A stretch of DNA of 64,000 nt from an uncultured Bacteroidia bacterium. Lineage in GTDB: Bacteria > Bacteroidota > Bacteroidia > Bacteroidales > CAJPTX01. The stretch spans positions 1,776 through 65,775 of the forward strand of contig CAUUCP010000006.1 in NCBI GenBank assembly GCA_963543925.1, in the 5' to 3' direction. How positions within the stretch are numbered: the first letter of the stretch is position 1; each line of letters opens with the position of its first letter. Made by a program: the position numbers and the translations under genes. The notes under the pieces are model-generated. The model was not told the DNA's origin. It worked only from the letters and a program-made list of their open reading frames with translations, and searched no databases. Below are positions 1 through 50,298 of this stretch, piece by piece.

Positions 1-2063
1 ACACCGCGGTATGGCAACCTCTTTATCTCAAGATGATGGAGGATGTCTATCGACAACACAAAGAGGTTACGGGCTTTTGGGATAGTTACGAGTATGCAGC
101 CTATCGTCCAGGGTATACCAAGGATTACGGGCGTACGACGCGTTCCTTGAATGTGGATGAGAACGGGCAGTTTGTGGTTGAGGTTTTGGAACTCTCCTTG
201 GACGGAGACTACGGACCGTATGAGACATTTAAGCAGCGTAATGTTGCCGATATCTGGGATCCGTATCTTGACACGACAACCCAAGGGCACGAACACGGGA
301 TTATGATGACCACCGTAGGGGCGCCCATACAAAAAAATAGTCGCTATGCAGGGTTGGTTGGGTTAGATATCTCGCTCTCTTGGTTGCAAGATCTTATCAA
401 GGGGATTAAGCCTTTTGAGGGGAGTATCCCTTTCCTCTTATCCGGAAAGTCGCGTGTGGCGTCGTACCCGAACGATTCGATGCTGAATAAGAGTATCGAC
501 GACCTCTTTGGTATTGTAGCGAGGAATGAGAATCTCGAGGAGCGGCAGCGCAAGGGGCTCTCTTCCACCTTTGTCTACGAAGACTCTCTCTCGGGGCTCG
601 ATTACTACGTCTATATTGCTCCGATCTCGGTGACTGGGGCACACTCGCATTGGGGGATGGGGATTTGTGTACCTCTGGGGGTTATCACGCACAGTGCCGA
701 TGAAAGTCTGAAGGTCGCCATCTTGGCAGGCTTGATCGGAACGATTTTCCTTATCCTCGCCTTGTGGTGGATAGCGGCGCATATCTCGCGTCCTATACTC
801 CAGATGACCGAGATGCTCAATATCCTAGCCCAAGGAGACCTCGATTCGGAGCAGAATATCAAGATCCACTCGGGTGACGAGCTAGAGTTGATGAGCTTTG
901 CGATGAATCGCTTGCTCAATGGTTTACGACGGATGAACGAGCTCGCCAAGAGTATCGAGAGTGGAGACCTTACACGAGATATTTCGCTCTTGGGACCGAA
1001 GGACTCGCTCGGGAAGTCGCTCATCTCCATGAGGAATAGTCTTCGTGAGGCGCGAGCAGAGGAGGCTAAACGCGAGCAGGAGAATAGTCATCGCGCATGG
1101 GTGAACCGAGGGTTGGCGGAGTTTAGCAAGCTCCTGCGAGAGAATTCCAACAACCTCGATATGTTGTGCGAGAGCTTCCTCTTTCGTATCGCACACTATG
1201 TCAATGCCGAGATGGGGGCGCTCTACCTTCGCGACGACGAACGTTATCAGCGACGGCAGGAGGACGAATATCTCTTGAAAGTCTCCTATGCTTGGGGCGA
1301 GAAACGTTATCTGCAAGGAAAGTTTAAGCGAGGTGAGGGGCTCATCGGTTCGTGTGCTATGGAGAAAAAGCACATTTACCTGACGGAGATCCCGAAGGAC
1401 TTCTCTGTTATCATGGCTGGGGTGGGACAGGCTGCCCCAAAAGGGGTCTTGATCGTACCTATGCTCCATGAAGGGGAAGCGATTGCCGTACTCGAACTGG
1501 CTTCCTTCGAGCCATTCCCCTCCCATGTGATTGACTTTCTGAATAACCTCTCGGTCTATGTTGCGGCGAGTCTTTTCACCGTACAGGTGGGGATGAATAC
1601 ATCGCAACTCTTAGCTCAGTCGCAAGAGCAAGCTGAGGAGTTGAAGGCGCAGGACGAGGAGTTGCGACAGAACCTCGAAGAGCTCAAAGCTACCCAAGAA
1701 GAAGCCGATCGAAAGAGGGAGGAGAACGAGAGTCTTTTTGTAGCTCTCTCCAATACGCTCTACTATGTAGAGTATAATCTAGAGGGCTTTGCCATCAACG
1801 CAAGCAACAACTATCTCGAACGTCTACAGATGACGCGCTCGCAAGTGATACACACCCACTTCTCCGACGGGTGTGAACTTCCCGGATGGGATCGGAAGCG
1901 TTTCGAAGCCTTCTGGAACGAGGTGCGCTCTGGAAAGTCCCGTAGAATAGAAACGAAACAGAGGATAGGCGATACGGAGATCTCTGTACTCGAGTTCTAT
2001 CTCCCGATGAAAGATGCGCAGCAACGAGTATACAAGATATTGAAGCTCTCATTTGAAGTCTAG
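1..2063 (+). CDS. membrane sensor: extracytoplasmic domain-TM-HAMP-GAF-coiled coil-PAS-like, no enzymatic output domain (5' partial)
   Basis: The frame is open to the window edge (codons from nt 3, no upstream stop). [24 protein letters not shown]; HAMP-like [21 protein letters not shown]; GAF-like [17 protein letters not shown]...[17 protein letters not shown]; coiled coil with EELKATQEE. Clear paralog of 39364..41295. Confidence 0.75.
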
Positions 2064-12637: not shown

Positions 12638-14197
12638 ATGGGCTCTGCTAAAATCCTGTGGGTCGACGACGAGATAGAACTCCTCCGCCCACACATCCTT
12701 TTCCTAGAAAAAAAAGGCTATCAGCTTGCGACCGCCACGAATGCCGATGACGCACTCGATCGGGTCGAACGAGAACCATTCGATCTTATCTTCCTCGACG
12801 AGAATATGCCTGGACTTACGGGACTCGAGGCGCTTGCCCATTTCAAGCGATTGGCCCCCACCGTACCCATCGTCATGGTTACAAAGAGCGAGGAGGAAGA
12901 TATCATGGATCGCGCCGTGGGAGCGAAGATCGCTGACTACTTGATTAAGCCAGTAAATCCAAGCCAGATCCTTATCTCCATCAAAAAGCACGTTCACGAA
13001 CGAGAGCTGGTAACCGTGGGGACGACCTCGGCATACCAGAACAACTATCTCCAGATCGGAGACCTCATCAATTCTGCACAGACTTGGCAGGATTGGACAA
13101 AGATACACCTACAACTCTCCGAGTGGCGCGTGAGCCTACTCTCGGCAAACGCCCCCGAGATGTTGGAACTCCATGCGCAGCTACAGCAACAGGCGAACGT
13201 CGCTTTCGGAAAGTATATCCGTCGTAACTATACCAGCTGGTTCTCCGATTTGGGCAGTGGTCCCGTGACTTCCCCACGCGTGATCCGAGATCAAGTCTTA
13301 CCCTACGTAGATGCTGGAGAGAAGGTCGTCCTATTGGTCATCGATAACCTCCGTTTTGACCAATGGCGCATGCTCCGAGAGAGTATCTCGAAAACTTGGC
13401 GTGTCGAGCAGGAGCAGACCTACTACGCCATCCTACCCACCGTAACGCACTATGCGCGTAATTCCCTCTTTGCTGGATTGATGCCCTTGGAGATCTCACA
13501 ACTACACCCAGACTTGTGGATCGGAGAACAGGACGAGGAGGGCAAGAATATCTACGAGTACGAACTGCTGCGTAGAAACCTACAGAGGCTCGGAAAAAAG
13601 TGTTCTACACTCTACTATAAAGGGGCGACCCTCGACGGTACGCCATTGAAGGATGGAGATTTCCAACAACTATTGGAAACAGACCTCACCGTGGTGGTCT
13701 ATAACTTCATCGATATGCTCTCCCACGCACGCCACGACATGCAGATTATGAAGCAGTTGGCAAATGACGCACACGCCTATCTTTCCCTCACGCAGAGCTG
13801 GTTTAAGCACTCGGACTTGTTCGTCTTTCTTGAAAAGCTAAGCCGCTACCCCGTACGCTTGCTCATTACCACAGATCATGGCTCTATTCAGGTGAAGAAG
13901 GCGCTGAAAGTGATCGGAGATCGAGAAACGTCCAACAATATGCGCTACAAGCTCGGAAAAAGCCTATCTTATAACGATAGAGAGGTCTTCGCCTGTAAGA
14001 ACCCCGCTGAGGTACACCTCCCACAGTCCAGTATGAGCGCGCGTTATATCTTTGCCCTCGGAAACGACTTCCTCATTTATCCCAATAACTTCAATACCTA
14101 TGCTCGCATGTTCAAGGATTCCTTCCAACACGGGGGCGTTTCGCTCGAGGAGATGATCGTGCCATTTATCTCCCTCTCTCCACAGAAGAATAAGTAG
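12638..14197 (+). CDS. porX: T9SS response regulator PorX (receiver + PglZ/alkaline-phosphatase-like domain)
   Basis: CheY-like receiver (ILWVDDE...DLIFLDENMPGLTG...KP) followed by a roughly 380-aa PglZ-like domain (TTDHGS). Length is 519 aa. Confidence 0.8.
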   Translation: MGSAKILWVDDEIELLRPHILFLEKKGYQLATATNADDALDRVEREPFDLIFLDENMPGLTGLEALAHFKRLAPTVPIVMVTKSEEEDIMDRAVGAKIADYLIKPVNPSQILISIKKHVHERELVTVGTTSAYQNNYLQIGDLINSAQTWQDWTKIHLQLSEWRVSLLSANAPEMLELHAQLQQQANVAFGKYIRRNYTSWFSDLGSGPVTSPRVIRDQVLPYVDAGEKVVLLVIDNLRFDQWRMLRESISKTWRVEQEQTYYAILPTVTHYARNSLFAGLMPLEISQLHPDLWIGEQDEEGKNIYEYELLRRNLQRLGKKCSTLYYKGATLDGTPLKDGDFQQLLETDLTVVVYNFIDMLSHARHDMQIMKQLANDAHAYLSLTQSWFKHSDLFVFLEKLSRYPVRLLITTDHGSIQVKKALKVIGDRETSNNMRYKLGKSLSYNDREVFACKNPAEVHLPQSSMSARYIFALGNDFLIYPNNFNTYARMFKDSFQHGGVSLEEMIVPFISLSPQKNK

Positions 14198-24756: not shown

Positions 24757-26781
24757 ATGAGAAAAATTTTGTTGAATGCAGCGATGCTTCTCGGAGCATT
24801 GTTGCTGTTCGTGCCGCTGAGCAAGGCGCAATTGCAGGATCCCACTGCTATTACCATTGATCCTGCAACTGTTGAGCTGAAGAAAGGCGAAACTAAGGAG
24901 ATCACTCTTAAGTTCGTACCTGAAACCAATGTAGATAAGGAAGCTACTGTTGTTGCAGAACCAGCAGACAAGCTTACTGTAAGTGTAGCGAACGGAGTCT
25001 TGAAGCTCGTTGCAGATAAGGATATCACAGCAGAAACAGCAGTTAAAGTGACTGTGACTAGCACGAAAGTTTCTACTATTAAGGCAGTTTGCAATGTAAC
25101 TCTGAAGCCTGCTCCTGCTTTGCAGAATCCCACTGCTATTACCATTGATCCTGCAACTGTTGAGCTGAAGAAAGGCGAAACTAAGGAGATCACTCTTAAG
25201 TTCGTACCTGAAACCAATGTAGATAAGGAAGCTACTGTTGTTGCAGAACCAGCAGACAAGCTTACTGTAAGTGTAGCGAACGGAGTCTTGAAGCTCGTTG
25301 CAGATAAGGATATCACAGCAGAAACAGCAGTTAAAGTGACTGTGACTAGCACGAAAGTTTCTACTATTAAGGCAGTTTGCAATGTAACTCTGAAGCCTGC
25401 TGCTCTCTTTACCCTGAAGAACGAAGGTAAGGCTACAGTAAAGGTGGAAAAGAAGGGTACTGATGGTCAGTATACTACAGTTACAGAAGCTGATTATAGT
25501 AAGTTGGCAGCTAACGACGAGATCAAGGTTACTGTAGAAGCTCCAGCTGGTAAGGAAATTGAAAAGGTAACTGTAAAGGTTGGTACAGGTGCTGAAGAAG
25601 CATTGACGGCTACAGAAAAGAAGTACATCAGGGAATTGAAGTTGGAAGCAGGCAAGCCAGTTGTTGTAACTGTAACAATGAAGACACCTGCTAAGGTTAC
25701 CTTGACTGTAACGAACGATAAATCTATTAAGGCAGACGCTTACACGACAACTCCTGCACTTGCTACTGGTAAGGTTGAGGTTGATAAGGATGCTAAGGTA
25801 ACATTTACGTTCAAGGCTGCTCCTGAAAAGGGTAAGATGTATCAAATCAAGGCTAAGGAAGCTGATGCAGCTAATGTTACTGTTGGTGCTTACGATGCAA
25901 CCAAGAAGACGATCGAAGTTACTGTAAAGGGTAATGCTGAAGTAACTGTAGCTCTTGTACCTGCAGCTCCCGCTGCTTCAATCGTAGACCTCGCTGGTAA
26001 TGCTAAGGAAGATGCTGAAGTAAAGGCATTCACCAAGGCTGATGATGGTAAGTTCACGAAGGAAACGAAACTCGAAGATTTGAAGGCTAACGAAGAGTTT
26101 GTACTCCAGATCACTGCTAAGGAAGGTAAGAAGATTACCAAGGTAGAAGTGAAGGTTGGCGATGCTGAAGCTAAGCCTCTTGAACTTAAGGACAACAAAT
26201 ATACCACCGAGCCTATCAAGGTTGAGGCTGGTAAGAAGGTTGTTGTTACGGTAACTACCGAAGAACCTCCTGCTGCTGCTCTTCTCGAAGTAAAAGCTGA
26301 TCAGGGTGTTACTGTAAAGGTAGAAGTTGCTGGTAAGGAAGTTACAGACTTCTCTAAGATTAAGGCTGGTGATGATTTGACTATCACTGTTACAGCTCCT
26401 GCTAATAAGCCTGTTGTTACGGTAACTGTAACCGAAGAAGGTGGTCAGCCCAAGACACTCGAACTGAAGGATGGCAAGTACACCCATAAGATGGGTACTA
26501 AGAAGACCGTGTTGACTGTAACGGCAAAAACTCCTGCAGAAGATGCTGTATTGGCTGCTGTAGCTGTATACCCGAACCCATTCGTAGGTCAACTCTTCGT
26601 GGCTAACACCGCAGAAGTAGCTAAGGTGGCTTTGGTTAACGCTCAGGGTGTAGTTGTACGTACGGTATTGCCCGCTGGTGCAAACGAACTCAACATCGCT
26701 GTTGAAGACTTGCCCGCTGGTGTATACGTATTGGTACTCGAGCGCGAAGGCGCACGCAAGGCTATCCGCCTCGTGAAGTAA
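24757..26781 (+). CDS. T9SS-secreted repetitive surface protein (two Big_2-like domains, divergent beta modules, C-terminal sorting domain)
   Basis: Signal peptide MRKILLNAAMLLGALLLFVPLSKA. ITIDPATVELKKGETKEITLKFVPE resembles Big_2. The C-terminus VYPNPFVGQLFV...LPAGVYVLVLE...IRLVK is a T9SS CTD. Confidence 0.85.
   Translation: MRKILLNAAMLLGALLLFVPLSKAQLQDPTAITIDPATVELKKGETKEITLKFVPETNVDKEATVVAEPADKLTVSVANGVLKLVADKDITAETAVKVTVTSTKVSTIKAVCNVTLKPAPALQNPTAITIDPATVELKKGETKEITLKFVPETNVDKEATVVAEPADKLTVSVANGVLKLVADKDITAETAVKVTVTSTKVSTIKAVCNVTLKPAALFTLKNEGKATVKVEKKGTDGQYTTVTEADYSKLAANDEIKVTVEAPAGKEIEKVTVKVGTGAEEALTATEKKYIRELKLEAGKPVVVTVTMKTPAKVTLTVTNDKSIKADAYTTTPALATGKVEVDKDAKVTFTFKAAPEKGKMYQIKAKEADAANVTVGAYDATKKTIEVTVKGNAEVTVALVPAAPAASIVDLAGNAKEDAEVKAFTKADDGKFTKETKLEDLKANEEFVLQITAKEGKKITKVEVKVGDAEAKPLELKDNKYTTEPIKVEAGKKVVVTVTTEEPPAAALLEVKADQGVTVKVEVAGKEVTDFSKIKAGDDLTITVTAPANKPVVTVTVTEEGGQPKTLELKDGKYTHKMGTKKTVLTVTAKTPAEDAVLAAVAVYPNPFVGQLFVANTAEVAKVALVNAQGVVVRTVLPAGANELNIAVEDLPAGVYVLVLEREGARKAIRLVK
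24832..25401 (+). repeat. in-frame tandem duplication, period 288 bp (96 aa)
   Basis: 24832-25113 and 25120-25401 appear identical except for G/A at 24838. Both antisense frames also translate identically across the two copies. Confidence 0.9.
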
Positions 26782-38510: not shown

Positions 38511-39359
38511 TTGTTGGTGGTGGAAAATCCGGATGATTTGTCGCGCTTTGTGACGGCTCTTCGTGCCCATACGACGTATGATCTGAGTGATTACTCGGAT
38601 CGTTCGTTGCTACGCCGACTTTATAAAGTGCTCGAAGATGAGCGACTAACGCTAGATGAGCTTCTGGCACGTATCGCACAGGATGCAGCATACGGAGAGC
38701 ATATTGTACAGGCGATCACGGTCAACACCAGTGAGCTCTTTCGAGATCCCTCTGTATGGCTCTTGTTACGTTCTCGTATTTATCCGAGATTTAAGGCTCA
38801 AAACTATCTGAATATCTGGCATGCGGGTTGCTCTATGGGGCAGGAGGTTTATTCCAATCTGATGTTGCTCACCGAGCTCGGTCTTTATGAAAAGGCGAGG
38901 GTTTATGCCAGTGACATCAATATGAGGATTCTTGAGGCTGCACAGCTCGGGGAATATCGTTATCGGTTCAATCTGTCCTATCTTGACAATTTCGATCTGG
39001 TGATTAACACCAATCCCTTGAACTACGAAGAAAAGCTCTCTGTGCCCTATTCCAAGTATTTTGAAATTGACGAGGTTAAGGATTTGATTCGGATCAATGA
39101 ATCGCTGAGAAAAAAGCCTACATTCCGTGTCAATGATTTGGTTAAGGGGGTGAATCCCTTCTTTGTGCGTTACGATGTGATCTTTTGCCGTAACGTCTTG
39201 ATTTATTTCAACGCAGCCTTGCAGAATAAGCTCTTCGAGGTCTTCTATCGGAATCTCTATCCCGGAGGAATCCTTGTGCTAGGTGCTCATGAATCTATAT
39301 TGGGCTCGTGGGCGGATCGTTTTGAGAGGATTTCGCAGGTCTATGTGCGTAAGGATTAA
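38511..39359 (+). CDS. cheR: CheR-type protein-glutamate O-methyltransferase
   Basis: NTSELFRDP, IWHAGCSMGQEVYS (SAM-binding GxGxG-type), ASDINMRILEAA, VIFCRNVLIYF. Uses a TTG/GTG start; there is no nearby ATG. Confidence 0.85.
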   Translation: MLVVENPDDLSRFVTALRAHTTYDLSDYSDRSLLRRLYKVLEDERLTLDELLARIAQDAAYGEHIVQAITVNTSELFRDPSVWLLLRSRIYPRFKAQNYLNIWHAGCSMGQEVYSNLMLLTELGLYEKARVYASDINMRILEAAQLGEYRYRFNLSYLDNFDLVINTNPLNYEEKLSVPYSKYFEIDEVKDLIRINESLRKKPTFRVNDLVKGVNPFFVRYDVIFCRNVLIYFNAALQNKLFEVFYRNLYPGGILVLGAHESILGSWADRFERISQVYVRKD

Positions 39360-39363
39360 CGAA

Positions 39364-41295
39364 ATGAAAGAGTTCTTTTTACGTATTGTCAAGGCGTTGT
39401 ATGGGCGTTGGAGAGAGGTCAGATCGCGTGTCCTGACCATGGGGAGTCTCATTGTCTTCCTCGGCGTGTGTTTTTTTATCTTCGGACGTCTGGTACATAT
39501 GGAGTCTTACAAACAGTTGTCGCGAACGTTGGAGAGCTTTTCCCAGAAGTTCGCACAGACGCTTGAAATGCTAGATCTGGATGTGAAGCGGCTTGACTCT
39601 GCAAAGTATGAGGAACTCAGAATTTTGTTCCGAGACCCCATGTTTGGCAATACGGGCTATCCGTTTGTCTTACAGACGACGGGACAAATCAATTTCCATT
39701 TCTTCCGAGACGGGGACAGGCTTTCTAGAGAGGTCCTCGACCAGATGGCTTCTACACCAGGACGTCGCGGAAGAATCCGAATTAACTTCGGAACAACAGA
39801 AGAAATGGAGAGAGAAATTGTCTTCTGTTTTAGTCGCGATTTGGATTGCTTTCTCGCTATTGAGGTCTCGGACAAGGTCTTTGAGGCTACTTTGAATGGG
39901 CTTCGCATTTATAGCTGGTTACTCTTCTTGGCTGGATGTTTACTGGTCTGGTTCTTCTTTAATTATAATACGAGGAAGTCTGTGGCCTTTTATACGATCT
40001 TGCAGAAAAACTTGTCAGATTTGGCTGTCGGGATCTTGCCTCCTCCTTTCCCTACGGAGAAGGAAGAACGTCCTGAAATGGAGCTAATCGCGAAGAAGTT
40101 TAATCAAGTTATTGGAAATCTGGAGACAACAACTTCTTTTGTACAACGCATGGCTGATAACGATTTGACATCGGAGTATCAACCCTTAGGTCTGAGAGAT
40201 GAGTTGGGGAACACGCTTCTTGCATTGCGAGAGAATCTGCAAAAACAAGAGAGTGAAGCCGCACACATTAAAGAAGAAGAGCGTATACGAAGCTGGAGTA
40301 ATGAGGGATTGGCTGAGTTCGCAAAACTCTTGAGAGAGAATAGTAATGACATCTCGCAGTTGGCAGACATCGTATTGCAACGAATTGTCAATTATCTCGA
40401 TGCTACGCAGGGGGGACTCTTTATCGCAGAAATGCATGATAATGAGACTGTATTGCGTTTAGCCGCGGCCTTCGCTTACAATCGAAAGAAATATTTGGAG
40501 CAGGAACTACGTCTGGGCGAGGGCTTGGTGGGAACATGTGCTATCGAGCGTGAGATTGTACATATTGATGTCTTACCTCCCGAGTATTGTGACATCACGT
40601 CTGGGATTGGAAATGTGCCGCCAAAGGAATTGTTGATTGTGCCATTGAAAACCGATGATGCGCTACTGGGGGTATTGGAATTGGCTTCCTTAAAGGGCTT
40701 TGCGCCGTACATGGTCAATTTCGCACAGCGCCTCTCTGTGAGTATCGCGCAAACATTACAACAGGTACAGAGTACGCAGCGCACGGAAGAGCTTTTGCGA
40801 CAGTCACAAGAACAGCGGGAGGCGATGCGTTCGCAGGAAGAGGAAATGCGTCAGAATCTCGAGGAAATGCAAGCGACCCAAGAGGAGATGACGCGTAGAA
40901 CGCAAGAATTTGAAGTCTTGCAGCACGTGATCGACACATCACTCTTTTATGCAGAATTCTCAGAAAGTGGTAACTATTTACACGGCAATCCGCGTCTAGA
41001 GGATTATCTTCATCAGTTGGGATTTGCAGACTTCGCAACTCTTGATTTCTTCAAATTAATTCACGTGATCCAGAGTCAAGAAGGGCATTCCGAATCATTG
41101 GAGACGCTATGGAAGCAGATCGTAGGCGGGAGTGTGCGGACGCGCCTGCTCGCGATGAATGTCGCACAATCAGAGCTCCTCTATTGTTCTTTCTCCGTAT
41201 TGTCTCCCGATGGAGTGAATCGAGTTTATATGATAGCGCAGAATATCTCGTCCGTCGTGATGGATTCCATGTTAGCATACAACCAGAATTCGTAA
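39364..41295 (+). CDS. membrane sensor TM-periplasmic-TM-HAMP-GAF-coiled coil-PAS-like, no output domain (candidate methyl-accepting protein)
   Basis: TM1 LIVFLGVCFFIFG, TM2 [37 protein letters not shown]...GEGLVGTCAIEREIVHI, coil RSQEEEMRQNLEEMQATQEEM. Paralog of 1..2063. Confidence 0.8.
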   Translation: MKEFFLRIVKALYGRWREVRSRVLTMGSLIVFLGVCFFIFGRLVHMESYKQLSRTLESFSQKFAQTLEMLDLDVKRLDSAKYEELRILFRDPMFGNTGYPFVLQTTGQINFHFFRDGDRLSREVLDQMASTPGRRGRIRINFGTTEEMEREIVFCFSRDLDCFLAIEVSDKVFEATLNGLRIYSWLLFLAGCLLVWFFFNYNTRKSVAFYTILQKNLSDLAVGILPPPFPTEKEERPEMELIAKKFNQVIGNLETTTSFVQRMADNDLTSEYQPLGLRDELGNTLLALRENLQKQESEAAHIKEEERIRSWSNEGLAEFAKLLRENSNDISQLADIVLQRIVNYLDATQGGLFIAEMHDNETVLRLAAAFAYNRKKYLEQELRLGEGLVGTCAIEREIVHIDVLPPEYCDITSGIGNVPPKELLIVPLKTDDALLGVLELASLKGFAPYMVNFAQRLSVSIAQTLQQVQSTQRTEELLRQSQEQREAMRSQEEEMRQNLEEMQATQEEMTRRTQEFEVLQHVIDTSLFYAEFSESGNYLHGNPRLEDYLHQLGFADFATLDFFKLIHVIQSQEGHSESLETLWKQIVGGSVRTRLLAMNVAQSELLYCSFSVLSPDGVNRVYMIAQNISSVVMDSMLAYNQNS

Positions 41296-41296
41296 A

Positions 41297-42136
41297 ATGT
41301 ACGTTCCAGAATTTCAGGATCTAGGGATCAAGGAGACGCGAATGGTTGTTGCAGCGATTCGTGCAGGGCACAATGACGATTTTACGGATTTCAATCTCGG
41401 AATCTTGAGTCGCCGTTTTGCAATGGTGATGAATAGACTTGGAGTGCGTCAGGTTGATGGGTTATGCAATGTGCTCGCTTCGGGCGATGATGTGTTTTAT
41501 AACCGTTTCTTAGCAGAGTTGATCCCTCCAACGACCGAGCTCTTTCGTGATCCCTCCTTCTGGAAATTCCTGAAAGAGGAGGTGCTTCCCTTATTGTTGC
41601 GTCAATTTGGGGAGTTACGTGTGCTACAAGCTGCTTGTGGATCGGGCGAAGAGCTCTATTCGTTGTTGATACTTTTACATCTCCTCAAAATTCGAGAACA
41701 GGTAGAGGTCACATGTACGTATTGCTGTGAGCAAAATCTGTCGCAGATTCGCGGGGGGGGGATGCCAGTTAGGAGACGAGAGCTTGACGAGAATAATTTC
41801 CATGTGATCGAGGCGCAGGGGGAGTATGAACAATTTGTTTCCGCAGAGAATGAGTCTCCTGTATTTCGTCAAGAATTTTTAGAGGAGGTTCGTTTTTTCA
41901 GACAGACACCAGAGTTTAACTTGCAGAAAGAGGGGACGTTTCATCTTATCTTGTGTCGAAATCAGTTCCTCTATTTTAATCCTCAACTCGGGATTCGAAA
42001 TATGGAAGTGTTGTTCCGATCACTTGTCGTAGGGGGCGTTTTAGCGCTGGGAACAAAAGAGCACTTGGAAAGTTATCAGAATGGTAGTACATTTACAGTA
42101 CTAAACGGGGACGAGAGTCTTTATAGAAGGAAGTAG
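41297..42136 (+). CDS. divergent CheR-like methyltransferase
   Basis: TTELFRDPSFW, LQAACGSGEELYS, LILCRNQFLYFN. The motif order is as in CheR, but the central region has diverged. Confidence 0.72.
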   Translation: MYVPEFQDLGIKETRMVVAAIRAGHNDDFTDFNLGILSRRFAMVMNRLGVRQVDGLCNVLASGDDVFYNRFLAELIPPTTELFRDPSFWKFLKEEVLPLLLRQFGELRVLQAACGSGEELYSLLILLHLLKIREQVEVTCTYCCEQNLSQIRGGGMPVRRRELDENNFHVIEAQGEYEQFVSAENESPVFRQEFLEEVRFFRQTPEFNLQKEGTFHLILCRNQFLYFNPQLGIRNMEVLFRSLVVGGVLALGTKEHLESYQNGSTFTVLNGDESLYRRK

Positions 42137-42138
42137 TA

Positions 42139-42708
42139 GTGGCAACTCGTTACAAAGTGGTGGTTATTGGCGGTTCGGCTGGTAGTTTTCAGGTGGTGGT
42201 ACGCATCTTGCAATCGCTGCCCAGCACTTTTTCATTGCCAATTATCTTGTGTCTGCACCGTCTCAAGCACGTCCGGTCTGGTTTTGAGGAGGCTCTCTCT
42301 TTGCGATCTGCAATCCCCGTGATGGAGCCATTTGACAAGGAAAATATCCGGGCGAGAGTGGCTTATTTGGCTCCCTCCAACTATCATTTATTTGTCGAAT
42401 TGGGAAATCGCTTCTGTCTCTCCACAGAGGAGGTCGTAAATCATTCACGTCCGTCAATTGATTTAACCTTTTTCTCCGTGGCGCGTGTATATAGAGAACA
42501 TGCACTCGGTATCATCCTCTCGGGAGCGAATCGAGATGGCGCCATGGGGTTGGCGCGCTTAAAAAAGATGGGCGGTACAGCGCTTGTTCAGAATCCGCTC
42601 GAATGTGAGGTGAGGACTATGACCGAAGCCTCTTTACAATTGACGCCAGTCGATGGAGTACTCTCTACCGATGGGATTATTCAGTACCTGAAAGATTTGT
42701 GTGTGTAA
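42139..42708 (+). CDS. cheB: CheB methylesterase catalytic domain (no receiver domain)
   Basis: VVVIGGSAGSFQ (Ser), ILCLHR (His), SGANRDGAMG (Asp) in canonical order. Length is 189 aa. GTG start 2 nt after the cheR2 stop. Confidence 0.82.
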   Translation: MATRYKVVVIGGSAGSFQVVVRILQSLPSTFSLPIILCLHRLKHVRSGFEEALSLRSAIPVMEPFDKENIRARVAYLAPSNYHLFVELGNRFCLSTEEVVNHSRPSIDLTFFSVARVYREHALGIILSGANRDGAMGLARLKKMGGTALVQNPLECEVRTMTEASLQLTPVDGVLSTDGIIQYLKDLCV

Positions 42709-42711
42709 GTC

Positions 42712-43503
42712 ATGGGAAAGAGTGAAGTGAAGCGACTGCGTAGTTTGCGCCAATATCTGCTGATTAGCCTTTCTTTTCTCTTTAGTGGGGGGGTAATCTT
42801 GTTGTCTTTTAGACCAGAAGAGGGGTTGGCGATGCGCTATTGGGCTGTGGTGCTCTTGAGTATTGCGTTGGTGGCGGTCTTGGTATATCAGATTCGAGTG
42901 ATTCAGGGGGAGATTGAACGACGTGAGGAGGGGGAGGCTATTATCCAAAGCTTGTTGGGAGAAAAAGAGGAGTTGGAATATCAGTTACAACAATTGCAAG
43001 ACGCGCAGACTCAGAGTGTACAGGATACCAGAGATCGAGATCAGCAACTCTCTGATCTTGTCAATGCTGTGAGCGGAGAATCGCGTGATTCTTTCCTTGA
43101 TTCTTATTTCCGGCAGGTGGGCTATCATTGGGGGTTGATGCAAGGGCTCTTGTTCGAGGTGCAAGAGGATGAGGTGTATCGAGTAACGGCGCGTTATGCT
43201 TATTTTAGTTCTGCGGCAGATTTGGAGTTCCGAGTCGGAGAAACTCTTTTGGGGCAGGTGGTAAAAGACAAACAACCACTTTTCTTAGAAAACGTTGAGA
43301 GTGAGACTATTATCGTGGCCTCTGGAACAGGAAGTTCCAAACCATGTAGCTTGTATATGATCCCCGTTATGGCTGGTGGAGATGGAAAGTCTGCATTAGG
43401 GATCTTTGAATTGGCTTTTGTGAAAGAGTTGGACTTGGGCGCTCGGGATATGTTGTTGCGTTTTACCGATCGCATTGTCCAAGAGATTGAAAAGAGGTTC
43501 TAA
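42712..43503 (+). CDS. membrane-anchored coiled-coil GAF-domain protein
   Basis: Two TM helices, a coiled coil (EELEYQLQQLQDAQ), and a GAF-like C-terminus (VGETLLGQVVKDKQPLFLENV...IPVMAGG). Confidence 0.65.
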   Translation: MGKSEVKRLRSLRQYLLISLSFLFSGGVILLSFRPEEGLAMRYWAVVLLSIALVAVLVYQIRVIQGEIERREEGEAIIQSLLGEKEELEYQLQQLQDAQTQSVQDTRDRDQQLSDLVNAVSGESRDSFLDSYFRQVGYHWGLMQGLLFEVQEDEVYRVTARYAYFSSAADLEFRVGETLLGQVVKDKQPLFLENVESETIIVASGTGSSKPCSLYMIPVMAGGDGKSALGIFELAFVKELDLGARDMLLRFTDRIVQEIEKRF

Positions 43504-46133
43504 TGGATAAGGTTACGGTCTCCTCTGTGCTCAAGTTCTGGAAGTGGCATTTGAGATCTCGCGATATCGGGATCGCGATGCTGCTCTTTTGCGTCAGTAT
43601 CTTTTTGCTGGCGATGTGTTGGGTCTTGGCCGCCGCCACCCTTAACGGAGAATTCAGTTTCTCCACTCTCCTTTCATTGCATGAAAAACAGCCCTTGCTT
43701 TTCTTGATAGATCTTTTCCCGTTTGCTGTCGCGTTGGGATTTCTCTTTGTACAGTCGAGAAACGCCCAGCAGATTTATCTTTTAGAAAAACAAAATGCCG
43801 AGCAGAGGCTTAGTATTGAGGAAAAAGCGGATTTTGCAACGGCTATCGGAGATGGTAAGTACGACGCCTCCCTTGAGCTACAGGGGGGGGAAGATCGCCT
43901 AGGAACTTCGTTATTGCGCATGCGAGACAATCTCCTTGCTAATACGCAAAAGGAGAATGAACACTCTTGGGTGGCGCGAGGAAAGGAGGATATCGCGTAC
44001 GTTCTTCGTATGTACACCAATTTACAAGAGTTGGGGTATGAGGTCTTGAAGAAGCTGGTCGCTTACATTAATGTCGTGCAGGGGGGACTCTTCTTGTATG
44101 ATGAAGAGAAAGAACGTTTATTTGGTTTGGCAACCTATGCTTATAACAGAGAAAAGTTGAATCATCTCGAATTTGCACTAGGTGAGGGGCTTGTCGGGCA
44201 GTGTGCTTATGAGCGTGGTATCATTTATCGCACAGAGATCCCAGAGGACTATGTGACGATTACCTCTGGAGTCTTGGGAGATGCAAGACCCAAAAGTATT
44301 CTCCTCGTGCCCTTGATTACCGATGAACGATTACAGGGGGTTATTGAATTTGCTTCGATTCAGGAGGCGTTTAGCGAACGCGATATTCGTTTCTTGGAAG
44401 AGGTCGGAGAAACCATCGCTAGGGTGGTCTTCAACCTCCGAATTAGTCAAAAAACAGAAGCGCTGTTGCACGAGGCGCAACAGATGACGATCGAGCTCCG
44501 TGCGAATGAAGATCTTCTGCGTCAAAATGCAGAGGAAATGCAGAAAACGCATGAAGAGTTGGAACGTTCGAATATCCAACTTGAGGCTAAGATAAAGGAG
44601 GCTGAGAATGCTCAAAAACGTCTCCATTCTCTTCTGGAGAATGCGAGCGAGGTTATCACCATTTATAACAAGGAGCAAAATATTACCTACATCAGTCCAT
44701 CTGTTACTACGATCTTGGGGTATACGCCACAGGAGATGATGGATGGAAAGGATCGGGAACGTTTGACTCAGGAGGGGGTACGGATTTTGGATAAGATGTT
44801 TGCAAGTCTCATCTCTACCCCGCATGAAGCGGTAACATGCCAGTACATCTTTATGAAGAAGGATGGTGTGAAGGTCTTTATGGAGGTGACTGGGCGTAAT
44901 CTGTTGGAAGATCCTGCAATTCGTGGACTTATATTAAACTCTCGAGATATTACCGAACGACTCCGAGCAGAAAAAGAGGAACGCATGAAGAGCAAGATGC
45001 AATCCCTTTCGGAGAATTCGGTGGACATGATTATCCGTCTGAATCCCGACGGGCAGTTCTTCTATGCCAATCCTATTGTGGCTCGTTTCTTTGGAGTCCC
45101 AGTGACTGAGGTGGTTGATAGAAATCTTTTCGAAGTTAATATGCCCGAGATCCTCCGGGAGAGTATCGCACATTCTATACAAACTGTAGTCTCTACGCAA
45201 GCAAAATGGGAACAGGAGGTCTCTATTGAGCGTGAGAATGAACGTTTAATTCTGAAATTGTTAGCTATTCCAGAATTTGATGAAGGGCAGTTGGAGACGA
45301 TTCTTTTAGTAGGGCATGATGTGACCGAAGCTAAGAGGATTGAGAACGAAATTCAGGAGAAGAGTCATAAGATTCAGGAAAGTATTAATTATGCTAAGAG
45401 GATTCAGTCGTCCATTCTGCCCGATATGAAGTTGATACAACAGTACTTCCCAAAATCATTTATGTATTATCGACCACGGGATGTGGTCAGTGGCGATTTC
45501 CCTTGGATCTTTGTAAAAGGGGATAATATCTTTATTGCGGCCGTTGACTGTACGGGGCACGGAGTGCCAGGAGCGCTTTTGTCGTTTATTGGCTTCTTTA
45601 CGCTTAATAACGTTGTCGATCACGATGCCTCTTATAGCGCAGGGAAGGTTCTCGATTTGTTGCATGCAGGGGTTCGTAAAACTCTGCGTCAGGAACGAGC
45701 GGATGCCGATGCGCGAGATGGGATGGATATCGCTCTTTGTAAGATCGATTTGAAGCACATGCATATGGAGTATGCGGGGGCACATCGTCCTCTCTATTTT
45801 GTCCGTGGAAATACGCTGGAGGAATACAAGGGCGATCGGAGAGCAATCGGAGGAATTCCGAATGCTCGTAAGCCAGAAGGAGAGTTTACAAATTATAGCT
45901 TGGATTTAGAGGCAGGGGATAGAATCTTCTTTTTCTCCGATGGTTTACCAGACCAACAAGGGGGAGAGAGTGGACAGAAAAAGTACAGCCCACAGCATAT
46001 TCGGGAAGTATTAGTTGAACAGCGAGAACTCTCGATGGCTCGTTTAGCGCAATTTATCGAAGAAGATTTCTTGCGTCATCGGGGGCTTTGGAAACAAATG
46101 GATGATGTCTTGCTGATAGGTATAGAGTTCTAA
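43503..46133 (+). CDS. TM-GAF-coiled coil-PAS-PAS-PP2C (SpoIIE/RsbU/SiaA-like) Ser/Thr phosphatase
   Basis: GAF GEGLVGQCAYERGIIY, coil LRQNAEEMQKTHEEL, two PAS-like modules, and a PP2C domain with VSGDFPW...AAVDCTGHGVPGALLS...FFFSDGLPDQ. TAATG overlap with the upstream gene. Confidence 0.85.
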   Translation: MDKVTVSSVLKFWKWHLRSRDIGIAMLLFCVSIFLLAMCWVLAAATLNGEFSFSTLLSLHEKQPLLFLIDLFPFAVALGFLFVQSRNAQQIYLLEKQNAEQRLSIEEKADFATAIGDGKYDASLELQGGEDRLGTSLLRMRDNLLANTQKENEHSWVARGKEDIAYVLRMYTNLQELGYEVLKKLVAYINVVQGGLFLYDEEKERLFGLATYAYNREKLNHLEFALGEGLVGQCAYERGIIYRTEIPEDYVTITSGVLGDARPKSILLVPLITDERLQGVIEFASIQEAFSERDIRFLEEVGETIARVVFNLRISQKTEALLHEAQQMTIELRANEDLLRQNAEEMQKTHEELERSNIQLEAKIKEAENAQKRLHSLLENASEVITIYNKEQNITYISPSVTTILGYTPQEMMDGKDRERLTQEGVRILDKMFASLISTPHEAVTCQYIFMKKDGVKVFMEVTGRNLLEDPAIRGLILNSRDITERLRAEKEERMKSKMQSLSENSVDMIIRLNPDGQFFYANPIVARFFGVPVTEVVDRNLFEVNMPEILRESIAHSIQTVVSTQAKWEQEVSIERENERLILKLLAIPEFDEGQLETILLVGHDVTEAKRIENEIQEKSHKIQESINYAKRIQSSILPDMKLIQQYFPKSFMYYRPRDVVSGDFPWIFVKGDNIFIAAVDCTGHGVPGALLSFIGFFTLNNVVDHDASYSAGKVLDLLHAGVRKTLRQERADADARDGMDIALCKIDLKHMHMEYAGAHRPLYFVRGNTLEEYKGDRRAIGGIPNARKPEGEFTNYSLDLEAGDRIFFFSDGLPDQQGGESGQKKYSPQHIREVLVEQRELSMARLAQFIEEDFLRHRGLWKQMDDVLLIGIEF

Positions 46134-46164
46134 TTACCTTTGATGCGGAAAAAGAGGAGTGGTC

Positions 46165-46740
46165 ATGTCGCAAGTGAATACAGATAACTATCTTGAGTTC
46201 GTAGAGCAAGAGTATCACAAACTCGGAGGTGGAGAAGTTATGCTCGCCTATGAAGGTGAGGTCTCGCAGTCGTTGATTCTCGCTTTAACAGGCTTGATTG
46301 AGTTGGAAATTGTTAAAGCTGGTGAGGAAGCAAAGTTGCAAAAACAGCTTTTTCATACACTAGTTGAAGGGTTGCAGAATATCATGAAACATGCCGATCC
46401 GCTGGAGGGTGAGAGATCCTCTATGTTCAGTGGGCGTGGTGTGCTAATGTTGGTGCGTACACAGGAGGCTTATCATGTCCTCGTTGGTAACATAGTCTTG
46501 GGTTCGCGCGTTGCTGATATGCGGGGGAGACTTGATGCCTTGATTGCAGCGAATGATGAAGAGCTTAAGGCGATGCACCGGGCTAGTTTGAGAGGAAATG
46601 AAATATCGGACAAGGGAGGGGCTGGGCTTGGACTCATTGATATGGCGAGGAAGGCAAGTTCGATAGCCTATCTCTTTGAGAAAATAAATGATGAACGTCA
46701 GTTCTATTTGTTACAGGTGAAATTATTGCGTAAGATATAA
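46165..46740 (+). CDS. SiaB/RsbW-like GHKL Ser/Thr protein kinase
   Basis: N-box VEGLQNIMKHA and G-box DKGGAGLGLIDMA. About 190 aa and placed between the PP2C and DUF1987 genes. The alternative GTG start at 46159 is also possible. Confidence 0.7.
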   Translation: MSQVNTDNYLEFVEQEYHKLGGGEVMLAYEGEVSQSLILALTGLIELEIVKAGEEAKLQKQLFHTLVEGLQNIMKHADPLEGERSSMFSGRGVLMLVRTQEAYHVLVGNIVLGSRVADMRGRLDALIAANDEELKAMHRASLRGNEISDKGGAGLGLIDMARKASSIAYLFEKINDERQFYLLQVKLLRKI

Positions 46741-46759: not shown

Positions 46760-47143
46760 ATGGAGGTTATCAAAATTCAGGGTACGGACGATACCCCAAC
46801 CGTGACGTTGGAGGCAGATAAGGGACTGTTTGAGATCTCGGGTCGCTCTTTGCCAGAAGACGTAACGGCCTTTTATGCCCCCATATTAAGTTGGTTGGAT
46901 GATTATGCAGGAAGTCCAAATCCGAAGACGGTCTTTACGTTTAAGCTTGTCTATTTCAATACGGCGAGTTCGAAACTTTTGCTCGATATCTTAGTGAAAC
47001 TTGAAAAGATCCACGAGGATGGGCATGACGTCTTGGTGAAGTGGTGTTATCCAGAAGACGACGAGGATATGAAGGACGCGGGAGAAGAGTATTCCGAGAT
47101 TGTGGATATCCCATTCGAACAAGTTTCTTATGATATTGCTTAG
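46760..47143 (+). CDS. SiaC-like DUF1987 regulatory phosphoprotein
   Basis: TPTVTLEADKGLFEISGRSLPEDVTAFYAPILSWLDDY...FKLVYFNTASSKLLLDIL matches the DUF1987 pattern as recalled. Length is 127 aa. Confidence 0.75.
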   Translation: MEVIKIQGTDDTPTVTLEADKGLFEISGRSLPEDVTAFYAPILSWLDDYAGSPNPKTVFTFKLVYFNTASSKLLLDILVKLEKIHEDGHDVLVKWCYPEDDEDMKDAGEEYSEIVDIPFEQVSYDIA

Positions 47144-47223: not shown

Positions 47224-50200
47224 ATGAGTGAGGAAATATTAAAAGCGCTAATGCAACTTTTTGCCATTATTGCCAAGCAGGACGAAGGGCTGGGCGATAG
47301 TGAGCGGGAGTATGTAGAGGTGTTCCTCAAACAACAGATTAGCGCAGAAGCGGTAGCGGAGTATCTCGCGTTGTTTGATGGTTATGTCAATGACGATAAG
47401 GGGGGGAATAGTAAACTTACCTCGGTGAGGGATTCTGTACGAATTCTCGGAATCTGCAAAAAAATCAATAAGACCTTGACGCAGAAGCAGAAGGTGGTCG
47501 TGTTGGTACGTTTGTTTGAACTTGTGAGTGTTGAGGGCAAGTTTAGTGAACAACGAATGGCGATTATCAATACTGTCTCTGAAGTCTTTAAAGTAGAGCC
47601 CGAGGAGTTTGAGGATATTGAGGCTTTTGTCTTAAGCAAGGAGTTGACGGCTCTTACCCGTTCCACGATATTGCTCATTCATGCTGCCAAACACGAGACT
47701 CATAGTGATGAGGAAGGTGCGGTGTGTAAAGAAATTCATGTAGAGTCGCTGGATAGACCACTTGCCATTTTGCGTATCCGTTCGGAGGATCTTTATTTTC
47801 TCCGTTATGTCGGGAGTGAAGATCTCTATCTCAATGGTTTACCGATTCATAATCGAAGGATTTACCTCTTCGCCAGTGGAAGTAGTATAAAGCTACCTAA
47901 GGGGAAGCCGATTTATTATACCGATGTCGTTTCCCACTTCATGGCAGATCTTAGCCTGACGCCGATCTCGTACGTGGTGGATGATATCTCCTATAAGTTT
48001 CCAAATGGTGCTCTAGGTCTTCGGAATATCTCTTTCTCGGAAGAACATGGTCGTCTCGTTGGTATTATGGGGGCGAGCGGAGCAGGGAAGACTACGCTAT
48101 TGAATGTTTTGTCTGGCTCGTCTATGCCGTCTGGGGGGCAGGTCAGGATCAATGGACTTGATTTGTACAAGGATGCGGATAGGCTCGAAGGAACTATCGG
48201 GGTAATTCCACAAGACGACCTCTTGATAGAGGAATTGACGGTATTCCAGAATTTGTATTACAGTGCGAAGCTTTGCTTTCGGGATAAAGAAGAGAAGGAA
48301 CTTTGCGAGCTTGTAGATAAAACATTGGCAAGTCTTGGGCTTCTAGAGCGTAAGGATTTGAAGGTAGGTTCGCCTCTCAATAAGATGATCTCTGGGGGGC
48401 AGCGTAAACGTTTGAATATCGCCTTGGAGTTGATTCGAGAACCATCGATCCTCTTTGTCGATGAACCAACTTCGGGGTTGTCATCACGAGACTCCGAGAA
48501 TGTTATGGACTTACTCCGAGAGTTGACTCTGAAGGGGAAACTCATTTTTGTCGTGATACACCAGCCGTCGTCGGAGATCTATAAGATGTTTGACGATATG
48601 CTTATCTTGGATACGGGCGGTTATCTCGTCTACTGGGGTAATCCTGTAGAAGCCGTGATGTATTTTAAGAAGGCTGATGCGCAGGTGAATAGCGATGTAG
48701 GGGAGTGTCCTACGTGTGGAAATGTTAATCCCGAGTTGATATTCAATATCATCGAGTCGCACGTGGTGGATGAGTTCGGACGTTACACCCCTAATCGGAA
48801 GGTACAGCCGCAACGCTGGGAAGAGATCTTTCGAGAACAAAAGCCTAAGGTGCACGTGATGGAGGAGTCTGTCCCTCCACCAAAGTCATTGAATATCCCG
48901 TCCAAACTCAAACAGTTCTTGATTTATACTGCACGTGATTTCCGCTCGAAAATTAGCAATACGCAGTATATCGTGTTGAATCTGTTGGAGACGCCTGTAC
49001 TTGCGTTCATCTTGGCGTATGTGATACGGTATATTCCAGATCCGAATTCATCGGTATATATCTTTAGAGAGAATGAGAATATCCCGATCTATATTTTTAT
49101 GTCGCTGATCGTTGCGCTTTTTATTGGGCTTACGGTGAGCGCAGAAGAAATTTTCAAAGACCGGAAGATTCTTAAGCGAGAGCAGTACCTCAATCTGAGT
49201 AGGACATCTTACCTCTTTAGTAAGATCTTTATCCTATTAGTTTTGTCTGCGATACAAACATTGTCGTTTGTCCTGATTGCGAATAGTATCCTTAGCTTGA
49301 GAGGGTTGAATCTTGAATATTGGTTGATTCTTTTCTCTACCTCGGTTTGTGCTAATCTTATAGGGTTAAATATTTCGGCTACGTTCAATAGTGCGGTCAC
49401 TATTTATATTGTTATCCCATTATTGATGATCCCGATGATGGTGCTCTCTGGTGCAATGTTCTCTTTTGAAAAGTTGAACCGAGCGGTAGGAAGTTTTGAC
49501 AGAGTCCCCTTAATCGCAGAGTTCATGCCTACGAAGTGGGGGTACGAGTCTCTGGTCGTCTTACAGTTTAAGGATAATGAGTTCCAGCGTCATTTCTATG
49601 AACTAGAGAAGGCTGAGCGAAATGCCAATTACAAGACGGTTTACCTCTTGCCAGAGTTACAGAAGCGAATCGAATTTTGTATTGAGAACTGGGATAAGCG
49701 CGACTCGCTGGAGATCGAGCTAAAGTTGCGAGATGCGCTAGGGGTTTTGCATCGGAGTTTGAAACGAGAGCATGAGGTGGAGGCGGCAGAGATACCGTAT
49801 ACCTGTCTCTCTGGCTTGAATTACGATAGTGTGACCGAGGAGGCACTCTACGAAACGGTAGGTTATATAGATCAGTTGCAGGAAAAGTATGCCAAGATCT
49901 TCGGTGAAAAGAATAAGCAGCGGGATGCTATCGTATCTCACTTGATAACGACCAATCCTCAATTGTACGAGGCTAAGCGTGCTGCTTATCATAATGAAAG
50001 TGTGGCGGATCTTGCTCAGAAGGTATTTGAAAAAAATAAGATTCTTCAATTCAAGGATCAGTTGGTACAACAGTATGATCCTGTCTATCGAGACCCGATC
50101 CCTACTTCTGCTTTTGATATCGGATCGCACTTTCTTGCTCCTCGAAAGCATTTTATGGGACATTATTTCGATACCTATTGGTTCGATTTGGTCATCCTTT

Positions 50201-50298
50201 GGCTAATGAGTGCTTTCCTGTACTTGTCTCTACATTTCGAACTGTTAAGACGTATAGGCACTCTTTTTGCCTTTATACAGCGCTTGGTGAAACGATAA
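47224..50298 (+). CDS. ABC-G/ABC-2 type exporter fused to an N-terminal TerB-like domain and an uncharacterised beta-rich domain
   Basis: N-terminal 140 aa are helical and TerB-like (LFAIIAKQDEGLGDSEREYV...). NBD: GASGAGKTTLLNVLSG, ISGGQRKRLNIALEL, LFVDEPTSGLS. Six-TM ABC-2 domain at about aa 590-760, then a soluble tail of about 250 aa and a final TM helix. Confidence 0.8.
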   Translation: MSEEILKALMQLFAIIAKQDEGLGDSEREYVEVFLKQQISAEAVAEYLALFDGYVNDDKGGNSKLTSVRDSVRILGICKKINKTLTQKQKVVVLVRLFELVSVEGKFSEQRMAIINTVSEVFKVEPEEFEDIEAFVLSKELTALTRSTILLIHAAKHETHSDEEGAVCKEIHVESLDRPLAILRIRSEDLYFLRYVGSEDLYLNGLPIHNRRIYLFASGSSIKLPKGKPIYYTDVVSHFMADLSLTPISYVVDDISYKFPNGALGLRNISFSEEHGRLVGIMGASGAGKTTLLNVLSGSSMPSGGQVRINGLDLYKDADRLEGTIGVIPQDDLLIEELTVFQNLYYSAKLCFRDKEEKELCELVDKTLASLGLLERKDLKVGSPLNKMISGGQRKRLNIALELIREPSILFVDEPTSGLSSRDSENVMDLLRELTLKGKLIFVVIHQPSSEIYKMFDDMLILDTGGYLVYWGNPVEAVMYFKKADAQVNSDVGECPTCGNVNPELIFNIIESHVVDEFGRYTPNRKVQPQRWEEIFREQKPKVHVMEESVPPPKSLNIPSKLKQFLIYTARDFRSKISNTQYIVLNLLETPVLAFILAYVIRYIPDPNSSVYIFRENENIPIYIFMSLIVALFIGLTVSAEEIFKDRKILKREQYLNLSRTSYLFSKIFILLVLSAIQTLSFVLIANSILSLRGLNLEYWLILFSTSVCANLIGLNISATFNSAVTIYIVIPLLMIPMMVLSGAMFSFEKLNRAVGSFDRVPLIAEFMPTKWGYESLVVLQFKDNEFQRHFYELEKAERNANYKTVYLLPELQKRIEFCIENWDKRDSLEIELKLRDALGVLHRSLKREHEVEAAEIPYTCLSGLNYDSVTEEALYETVGYIDQLQEKYAKIFGEKNKQRDAIVSHLITTNPQLYEAKRAAYHNESVADLAQKVFEKNKILQFKDQLVQQYDPVYRDPIPTSAFDIGSHFLAPRKHFMGHYFDTYWFDLVILWLMSAFLYLSLHFELLRRIGTLFAFIQRLVKR

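Follow-up and report, generated by a model that had tools for sequence, protein, structure and literature searches.

Reversible glutamate methylation by the CheR methyltransferase and the CheB methylesterase gives bacterial chemotaxis its textbook memory device and, to our knowledge, is thought to act almost solely on chemoreceptors. Many Bacteroidota, and many proteins of the CheB/CheR-fusion type, have these enzymes without an obvious chemoreceptor partner, and what they would modify in such cases is the question raised by a nine-gene operon of an uncultured Bacteroidia bacterium (Bacteroidales, CAJPTX01; contig CAUUCP010000006.1 of assembly GCA_963543925.1, positions 1,776 to 65,775; this whole stretch of 64,000 nucleotides is hereafter called the window). 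The operon encodes two CheR-type proteins (CheR1 and CheR2) and CheB together with two sensors, P2 and P3, which share with a third sensor of the window, P1, a short segment rich in Glu pairs referred to below as the module. The reading favoured here, with a probability of about 0.55, is that CheR and CheB of this same operon use the Glu pairs of the module as their methyl-accepting sites. It is supported by the conservation of the module core, by a predicted helix that carries the pairs at heptad positions b and c, by synteny established from CheB alone and by the occurrence of similar NEELQS arrays next to CheR in fusion proteins.

The module comprises 45 residues in four heptads with four Glu pairs, and its copies align without gaps. 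In P1 (33..2063; this and all other coordinates written with two dots are on the + strand) it lies at 1590..1724 (amino acids (aa) 520-564, with EELKAT at aa 549-554), in P2 (39364..41295) at 40774..40908 (aa 498-542 of the open reading frame (ORF) that opens at 39283, with EEMQAT at aa 527-532) and in P3 (43503..46133) at 44445..44579 (aa 315-359), this last copy being divergent with EEMQKT and NEDLL. A preliminary description of this DNA had quoted three segments of these proteins, which are present as given there with coordinates off by a few bases only; the 30-residue segments correspond to P1 aa 529-558 (1617-1706), P2 aa 507-536 of the 39283 ORF (40801-40890) and P3 aa 324-353 (44472-44561). 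Pfam searches also bore out that a GAF domain stands directly upstream in all three proteins and that the CheR, CheR and CheB genes adjoin P2 and P3. The methyl-acceptor consensus Glx-Glx-x-x-[AS]-[ST] had been attributed to all three sensors; it is matched by EELKAT of P1 and EEMQAT of P2, whereas EEMQKT of P3 does not fit. The conserved unit, moreover, is not the single hexamer on which that description had centred, but the complete four-heptad module.

Relatives of P2 that are only 28-40% identical overall all retain the segment after the GAF domain nearly unchanged. Its core of 18 residues, QEEEMRQN[ML]EE[LM]QATQEE (aa 518-535 of the 39283 ORF, DNA 40834-40887), is the best-conserved 18-mer of the P2-type family, with a mean conservation of 0.95 versus 0.70 for the GAF domain, and each core position is occupied by its commonest residue, or by one of two hydrophobic alternatives, in 85-99% of 228 unique copies. 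To have called these residues the most conserved outside the GAF core was therefore an understatement, since they surpass the GAF domain as well. Within the window, P1 and P2 are identical at 20 of the 30 segment residues versus ca. 25% overall, and over the full module they share 25 of 45 residues, 16 of which are encoded by different codons. These synonymous differences rule out gene conversion as the source of the similarity and point to selection at the protein level. A match to the hexamer by itself is not beyond chance, as five matches occur in the 17,497 residues of the window genes, or ca. 0.2 per protein of this size; the position-specific conservation exceeds chance.

Loss of the pattern among orthologues, named in the preliminary description as the observation that would speak against a methylation site, was not seen. 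Among 774 unique module instances, pair 30/31, to which that description referred, is EE in 95% and pair 23/24 in 91%, while EE occurs in 67% at pair 37/38 and in 54% at pair 16/17; the hexamer is kept in 75%. As to whether the pairs would prove invariant or alternate between Glu and Gln, pair 30/31 is close to the first kind and shows no alternation, and Gln appears at the outer pairs and at position 24 of P3-type copies. Position 17 thus reads E74/Q11, with EQ in 12% at pair 16/17, and P3-type copies show E45/Q23 at position 16 and E68/Q23 at position 24. That this variation is specific to Glx, with almost no Asp, was counted in favour of methyl-accepting sites. The P3-type orthologues usually carry EEMRAT and NEEEL (A in 82%, T in 100%), and compared with 44 of them the P3 module of the window is atypical at positions that are otherwise fixed: K replaces A at position 34, and positions 22-24 read E-D-L instead of E-E-E.

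When a profile made from the P1, P2 and P3 modules was searched against 1.84 billion proteins (E <=0.001), it matched 3,120 representatives of clusters formed at 50% identity. The 149 best-scoring proteins contain two to nine module copies each, and in most of them the arrangement is GAF-[module-PAS]n with a period of ca. 165 residues. Two proteins, P0180 (aa 471-925) and P0202 (aa 771-1085), consist over these regions of pure tandem module arrays with periods of 63 or 70 residues and nothing between the copies. Such variation of copy number, including tandem arrays with no intervening domain, is as in an array of sites and was also counted for the favoured reading. No enzymatic or catalytic output domain was detected in ten module proteins that were scanned. 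Among proteins such as P0180, P0202 and P0181, some have little beyond GAF and tandem modules, in five or six copies, and others reach up to nine or ten module-PAS units in ca. 2,000 residues. The module is best explained as a portable helical unit of 45 residues and four heptads that joins GAF to PAS in a large family of receptor-like proteins of Bacteroidota. It also appears to be undescribed: it is among the most conserved elements of these proteins, no model covering it was found in Pfam or NCBIfam, and a sequence search of the PDB with P2 matched the GAF domain alone, so that no solved structure spans the module. A search of the full-text literature, with most subscription journals outside its reach, turned up no account of either the module or the operon, and none of a function for CheR-adjacent heptads.

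AlphaFold models, which are of monomers only, place the module of P2 within a continuous helix (residues 475-553, predicted local distance difference test score 83-96) that runs from the last GAF helix to the PAS-like fold, and the module of P3 in helix 292-353. In the best heptad register M or L occupies each d position, and position a is filled in turn by R/A, E, M/L and Q; since d alone is reliably hydrophobic, the coiled coil appears to be only marginally stable. All four Glu pairs occupy b and c, on the exposed face of a two-stranded coiled coil, which bears on the preliminary description's question whether the pair is solvent-exposed. Positions b, c and f are as fixed as a and d, with b, c and f at least 90% conserved, and this invariance of the whole surface speaks for recognition of the helix by a common partner, which could be CheR/CheB or else P3, the small GAF protein of the operon or another protein.

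The same helix is open to a different explanation, according to which the module is an unmethylated coiled coil, akin to the S-helix and also the N-terminal flanking helix of a PAS subfamily, that transmits signals from GAF to PAS or PP2C and mediates homo- or hetero-oligomerisation of the output-less receptors and P3, with CheR and CheB acting elsewhere in these proteins or on another product of the operon. We regard this as rather unlikely, although much of the architecture suits it: a single long helix connects two signalling domains, a module precedes each PAS in the GAF-[module-PAS]n proteins, near-invariance across paralogues is what a common docking surface would produce, and the sequence has no significant similarity to the methylation helices of methyl-accepting chemotaxis proteins (MCPs). 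Like the module, the S-helix is a helix of ca. 40-45 residues between two signalling domains in which acidic residues at b and c and polar residues in the interface are common (Anantharaman, Balaji and Aravind 2006, PMC1592074). It is, however, defined by an ERT signature at c, d and e, and conservation at its positions b, c and f is lower by a factor of four to five than at a, d, e and g (PMC1592074). In place of ERT the module carries E-M-R and E-[ML]-Q, and its b, c and f positions are conserved like the core. Furthermore, modules can be arrayed in tandem with no PAS between the copies (P0180, P0202), and a signalling helix would leave unexplained both the link to CheB described below and the CheR-adjacent NEELQS arrays. 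P1/P2-type proteins have a second, less conserved Glu pair (family consensus AxxEExxRK) in the helix that connects the HAMP-like region with GAF (aa 325-340 of the 39283 ORF, aa ~343-352 of P1); P3 does not have it. Its presence fits a signalling helix, and it is also an alternative candidate site.

In the window the genes of the operon are tightly packed on the + strand in the order CheR1, P2, CheR2, CheB, small GAF protein, P3, SiaB-family kinase, SiaC-family phosphoprotein and TerB-ABC fusion, and from CheR1 to P3 neighbouring genes overlap or lie 0-4 nt apart, a layout suggestive of translational coupling. CheR1 (38511..39359) scores 119.5 bits with the Pfam CheR model (PF01739). The ORF of P2 opens at a GTG at 39283 and so overlaps CheR1 by 77 nt; the ATG at 39364, 4 nt past the CheR1 stop, is the likely start because it yields a product of 643 aa, the length of a 98%-identical protein (P0001). 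P2 is predicted to be a membrane sensor with HAMP-like helices, GAF, module and a PAS-like fold, with no output domain. It is followed by CheR2 (41297..42136), a divergent CheR paralogue (69.7 bits), CheB (42139..42708), which consists of the methylesterase domain only, with no receiver domain (PF01339, 148.8 bits), a small membrane-anchored GAF protein (42712..43503) that stands between CheB and P3 in most operons, and P3, which combines two transmembrane helices, GAF, module, two PAS domains and a PP2C phosphatase domain of the SpoIIE/SiaA type (68.7 bits for SpoIIE/PP2C; the SiaA model covers residues 611-874 with a score below its equivalog cut-off).

The operon recurs elsewhere. All nine genes also occur in a Tenuifilaceae genome whose P2 orthologue is only 29% identical, and the operon is complete in a cultured isolate, Tenuifilum thalassicum (CP041345.1). 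Among 80 genome loci retrieved with P2, 15 contain operon genes and 12 of these extend to SiaB, SiaC and the ABC gene, including loci of Cytophagales. Because these loci had been picked by means of a module protein, a second scan, blind to the module, was run on 80 metagenome loci anchored on CheB alone. A gene encoding GAF-module-PAS-PP2C was found downstream of CheB in all 38 loci with at least 3 kb of downstream sequence, while a module receptor was present upstream in 19 of the 29 with at least 3.5 kb of upstream sequence. In most of the other ten, CheR1 adjoins CheR2 with no receptor between them. From the two counts, the invariant partner of CheR/CheB is the P3-type phosphatase; the in-operon receptor is optional, as shown by the CheR1-CheR2 variant without a P2-type receptor (L100, L105, L126, L128, L138, L148, L152 and L161). 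The common order is CheR, optionally a receptor, CheR, CheB, small GAF protein, PP2C sensor, SiaB-like kinase, SiaC and TerB-ABC transporter.

Matches to CheA, CheW, the MCP signalling domain and CheD, which would point to a classical substrate nearby, are absent from the 64-kb window and from all loci scanned but one, and this lack of an alternative was likewise counted for the module; none of the operons of this type has an MCP, CheA or CheW at a distance of 10 kb or less. The exception, in a Bacteroidales metagenome-assembled genome (L072, 1542-11929), is a cluster encoding CheA, CheW, MCP, CheR, HATPase, CheD and a receiver-bearing CheB, with a GAF-module-PAS gene immediately after it; Bacteroidales as an order thus do not lack classical chemosensory genes. 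A tblastn search with the MCP of this cluster returned nothing in the window. These data bear on a further possibility, that CheR and CheB modify another protein, such as SiaC, the SiaB-like kinase, the small GAF protein, the TerB domain or classical MCPs elsewhere in the genome, and that the module is a bystander. Synteny indeed shows a partnership within the operon and not a site, the L072 cluster demonstrates that a full classical system can be present in the order, and CheR is reported to methylate the non-chemoreceptor PhoP in Salmonella (PMC8546571), the sole non-chemoreceptor substrate of CheR to surface in the literature searched. We nonetheless consider it improbable, given the lack of MCP, CheA and CheW around these operons and the fact that the module is the only helical, Glu-pair-rich and ultra-conserved element common to P3 and the receptors; even in L072 it is a GAF-module-PAS gene that again directly follows cheB. 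The small GAF protein was considered as bearer of a matching motif and rejected, since it lacks a conserved Glu-pair motif and shows no conservation in its N-terminal half.

The enzymes themselves look functional as judged from their sequences, because the CheB triad (Ser13, His40, Asp133) is invariant in 14 orthologues and CheR1 retains its motifs for binding S-adenosylmethionine (SAM). The latter are intact in an alignment to Bacillus subtilis CheR (5FTW), and the consensus of CheR1 orthologues keeps ELFRDP, WHAGCSxGQEVYS, A.D.N and CRNVIIYF. A CheB without receiver domain is already known from the F3 chemosensory class (PMC9239204). CheR2, which is the CheR gene immediately upstream of CheB in most CheB-anchored loci, differs in that it and 64 orthologues are without the acidic residue of motif II ("as..s" versus "A.D.N" in CheR1); CheR2 also lacks an insert of ca. 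11 residues. The loss of the acidic residue, the missing receiver domain of CheB and the background frequency of the hexamer are what could be cited for the view that the module looks like a methylation site only as a side effect of its Glu-rich heptads, and that the CheR/CheB-like genes are degenerate or serve as non-catalytic scaffolds. With the CheB triad invariant, the CheR1 motifs intact and a tight operon order kept across orders of Bacteroidota, we judge it very improbable.

Independently of the operon, arrays comparable to the module are found where CheR is part of the same protein. A peptide query retrieved only fragments of less than 90 residues, named "CheB/CheR fusion protein", several with PAS_10 matches, which read NEELQST-NEELETS-KEELQSx-NEEL, and in two frameshifted loci CheR is followed by the motif, by PAS_10 and then by a histidine kinase or GGDEF/EAL. 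The module aligns in register with the NEELQS array over four heptads (hhalign probability 74%, E 2.7e-5), while controls with reversed and ten column-shuffled profiles gave probabilities of at most 0.4%. As in the proteins described here, the four to five x-N-E-E-L-Q-S heptads of the CheB/CheR-fusion sensors of other bacteria (KEGG K13924, "two-component system CheB/CheR fusion protein") directly precede PAS and are tied to CheR, and their hexamer EELQST fits Glx-Glx-x-x-[AS]-[ST]. Those fusions, however, contain the enzymes in cis and have a histidine kinase or GGDEF/EAL as their output, whereas here the enzymes are encoded by separate genes.

When compared with chemoreceptors, the module resembles Escherichia coli Tar and Tsr in having, downstream of HAMP, a long helix on which Glu/Gln pairs recur at intervals of seven residues, with the spacing of Tar sites 295, 302 and 309, and its hexamers EEMQAT and EELKAT recall EQLTAT at the Q309 site of Tar. 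As in MCP systems, dedicated CheR and CheB genes lie alongside, and many receptor paralogues are scattered around one enzyme operon. Unlike in MCP systems, the signalling domain of MCPs is absent here, as are CheA and CheW, and a PP2C phosphatase provides the output. The preliminary description was right that all three sensors lack the signalling domain: no match to PF00015 was found in P1, P2 or P3, whose C-terminal parts were checked up to E 10. The MCP methylation region forms an antiparallel hairpin bundle, whereas the module is modelled as a single continuous helix from GAF to PAS, and it is far more conserved than MCP methylation regions appear to be. Pathways with alternative functions such as Wsp couple CheR/CheB-type adaptation to a non-motility output; they retain MCP, CheA and CheW, of which the present operon has none.

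Several observations weigh against the Glu pairs as methyl-accepting sites. Against E. coli Tar and Tap the module profile scored at most 0.8 bits, which is not significant, and P1, P2 and P3 do not satisfy the ten-residue MCP methylation consensus [ASTG][ASTG]xx[EQ][EQ]xx[ASTG][ASTG], as cited in PMC6391922. The central pairs 23/24 and 30/31 show no E/Q alternation overall, variation being confined to outer positions apart from position 24 of P3-type copies, and the P3 copy of the window is without the Ala of the hexamer and without one Glu pair. Signalling helices as a class are typically acidic at b and c (PMC1592074), and an invariant surface suits any common binding partner, not CheR/CheB alone. 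At the level of genes, CheR or CheB is fused to the module in none of the 149 best module proteins, and in particular no CheR or CheB match lies inside P1, P2 or P3; in 65 of the 80 P2-anchored loci the module gene is far from cheR and cheB, so that a link of such genes to the enzymes would depend on action in trans. Finally, CheR2 may be an inactive, non-catalytic paralogue that does not bind SAM. The best of the non-significant profile alignments (L163), which are not evidence, fall at Tar 482-503 and Tap 480-503, on the second methylation helix near E491 (LVQES versus LLEQS of the module).

If methylation of the module does take place, the pathway might operate as follows. Inputs would reach the GAF-module-PAS proteins, as suggested by their domain architecture. 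CheR1 would methylate the Glu pairs and the receiver-less CheB would demethylate them or deamidate Gln; neutralisation of charge on a marginal coiled coil would shift the packing of the helix and thereby reset the output of the phosphatase. By homology to the Pseudomonas Sia system, the PP2C phosphatase of P3 would oppose the SiaB-family kinase on the SiaC-type phosphoprotein, which in turn would act on a target, probably, to judge from synteny, the adjoining TerB-ABC transporter. The logic would be that of chemoreceptor adaptation minus MCP, CheA and CheW.

The genes concerned by these last steps are a SiaB-family protein kinase (DUF6272 in Pfam, 46159..46740; NCBIfam NF038262, 129.8 bits versus a cut-off of 85), a SiaC-family phosphoprotein (46760..47143; Pfam PF09345, 140.4 bits) and a fusion of TerB, ABC ATPase and ABC-2 permease (47224..50298), which follows SiaC in most full-length loci. 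As in SiaA/SiaB/SiaC/SiaD of Pseudomonas aeruginosa, a PP2C sensor phosphatase, a SiaB-family kinase and a SiaC phosphoprotein occur in the same order. Unlike in Sia, there is no SiaD-type diguanylate cyclase, its place being taken here and in related loci by the TerB-ABC transporter; moreover, the phosphatase has GAF, the module and two PAS domains, and CheR, CheR and CheB are added upstream. Besides the full-length operon loci, the TerB-ABC fusion was observed at this position in L001 and L164, and it is possible that this transporter is a new target of a SiaC-type partner switch.

Outside the operon, P1 is encoded near the start of the window and is, according to Pfam, a dCache-like sensor with HAMP, GAF, the module and a weak PAS-like end, without output domain. 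The window also encodes a receiver domain fused to a PglZ domain (12638-14197), which presumably resembles the PorX-type regulator of type IX secretion, and a protein (24757-26781) whose C-terminal sorting domain is of type IX.

Relative to known CheR/CheB adaptation, the module and its operon are candidates for a new class of substrate and a new pathway, without MCP, CheA and CheW. A wider generalisation is proposed tentatively, its odds being somewhat short of even, namely that the four-heptad helix is a portable methyl-accepting unit independent of MCP, CheA and CheW, used in trans in thousands of Bacteroidota proteins and in cis in CheB/CheR fusions. CheR/CheB adaptation would then be a general add-on of PAS/GAF sensors, which in the present case would tune a PP2C switch controlling an ABC transporter, and the many receptors without output would converge on a single phosphatase in the way that chemoreceptors converge on a single kinase. 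Should the module not be a substrate, it would still be an undescribed and highly conserved element. If it is one, methylation-based adaptation would extend to a second and very large class of sensors, represented by the 3,120 clusters matched here, and would also reach a serine/threonine phosphatase partner switch, at a site that is defined to the residue and can be mutated.

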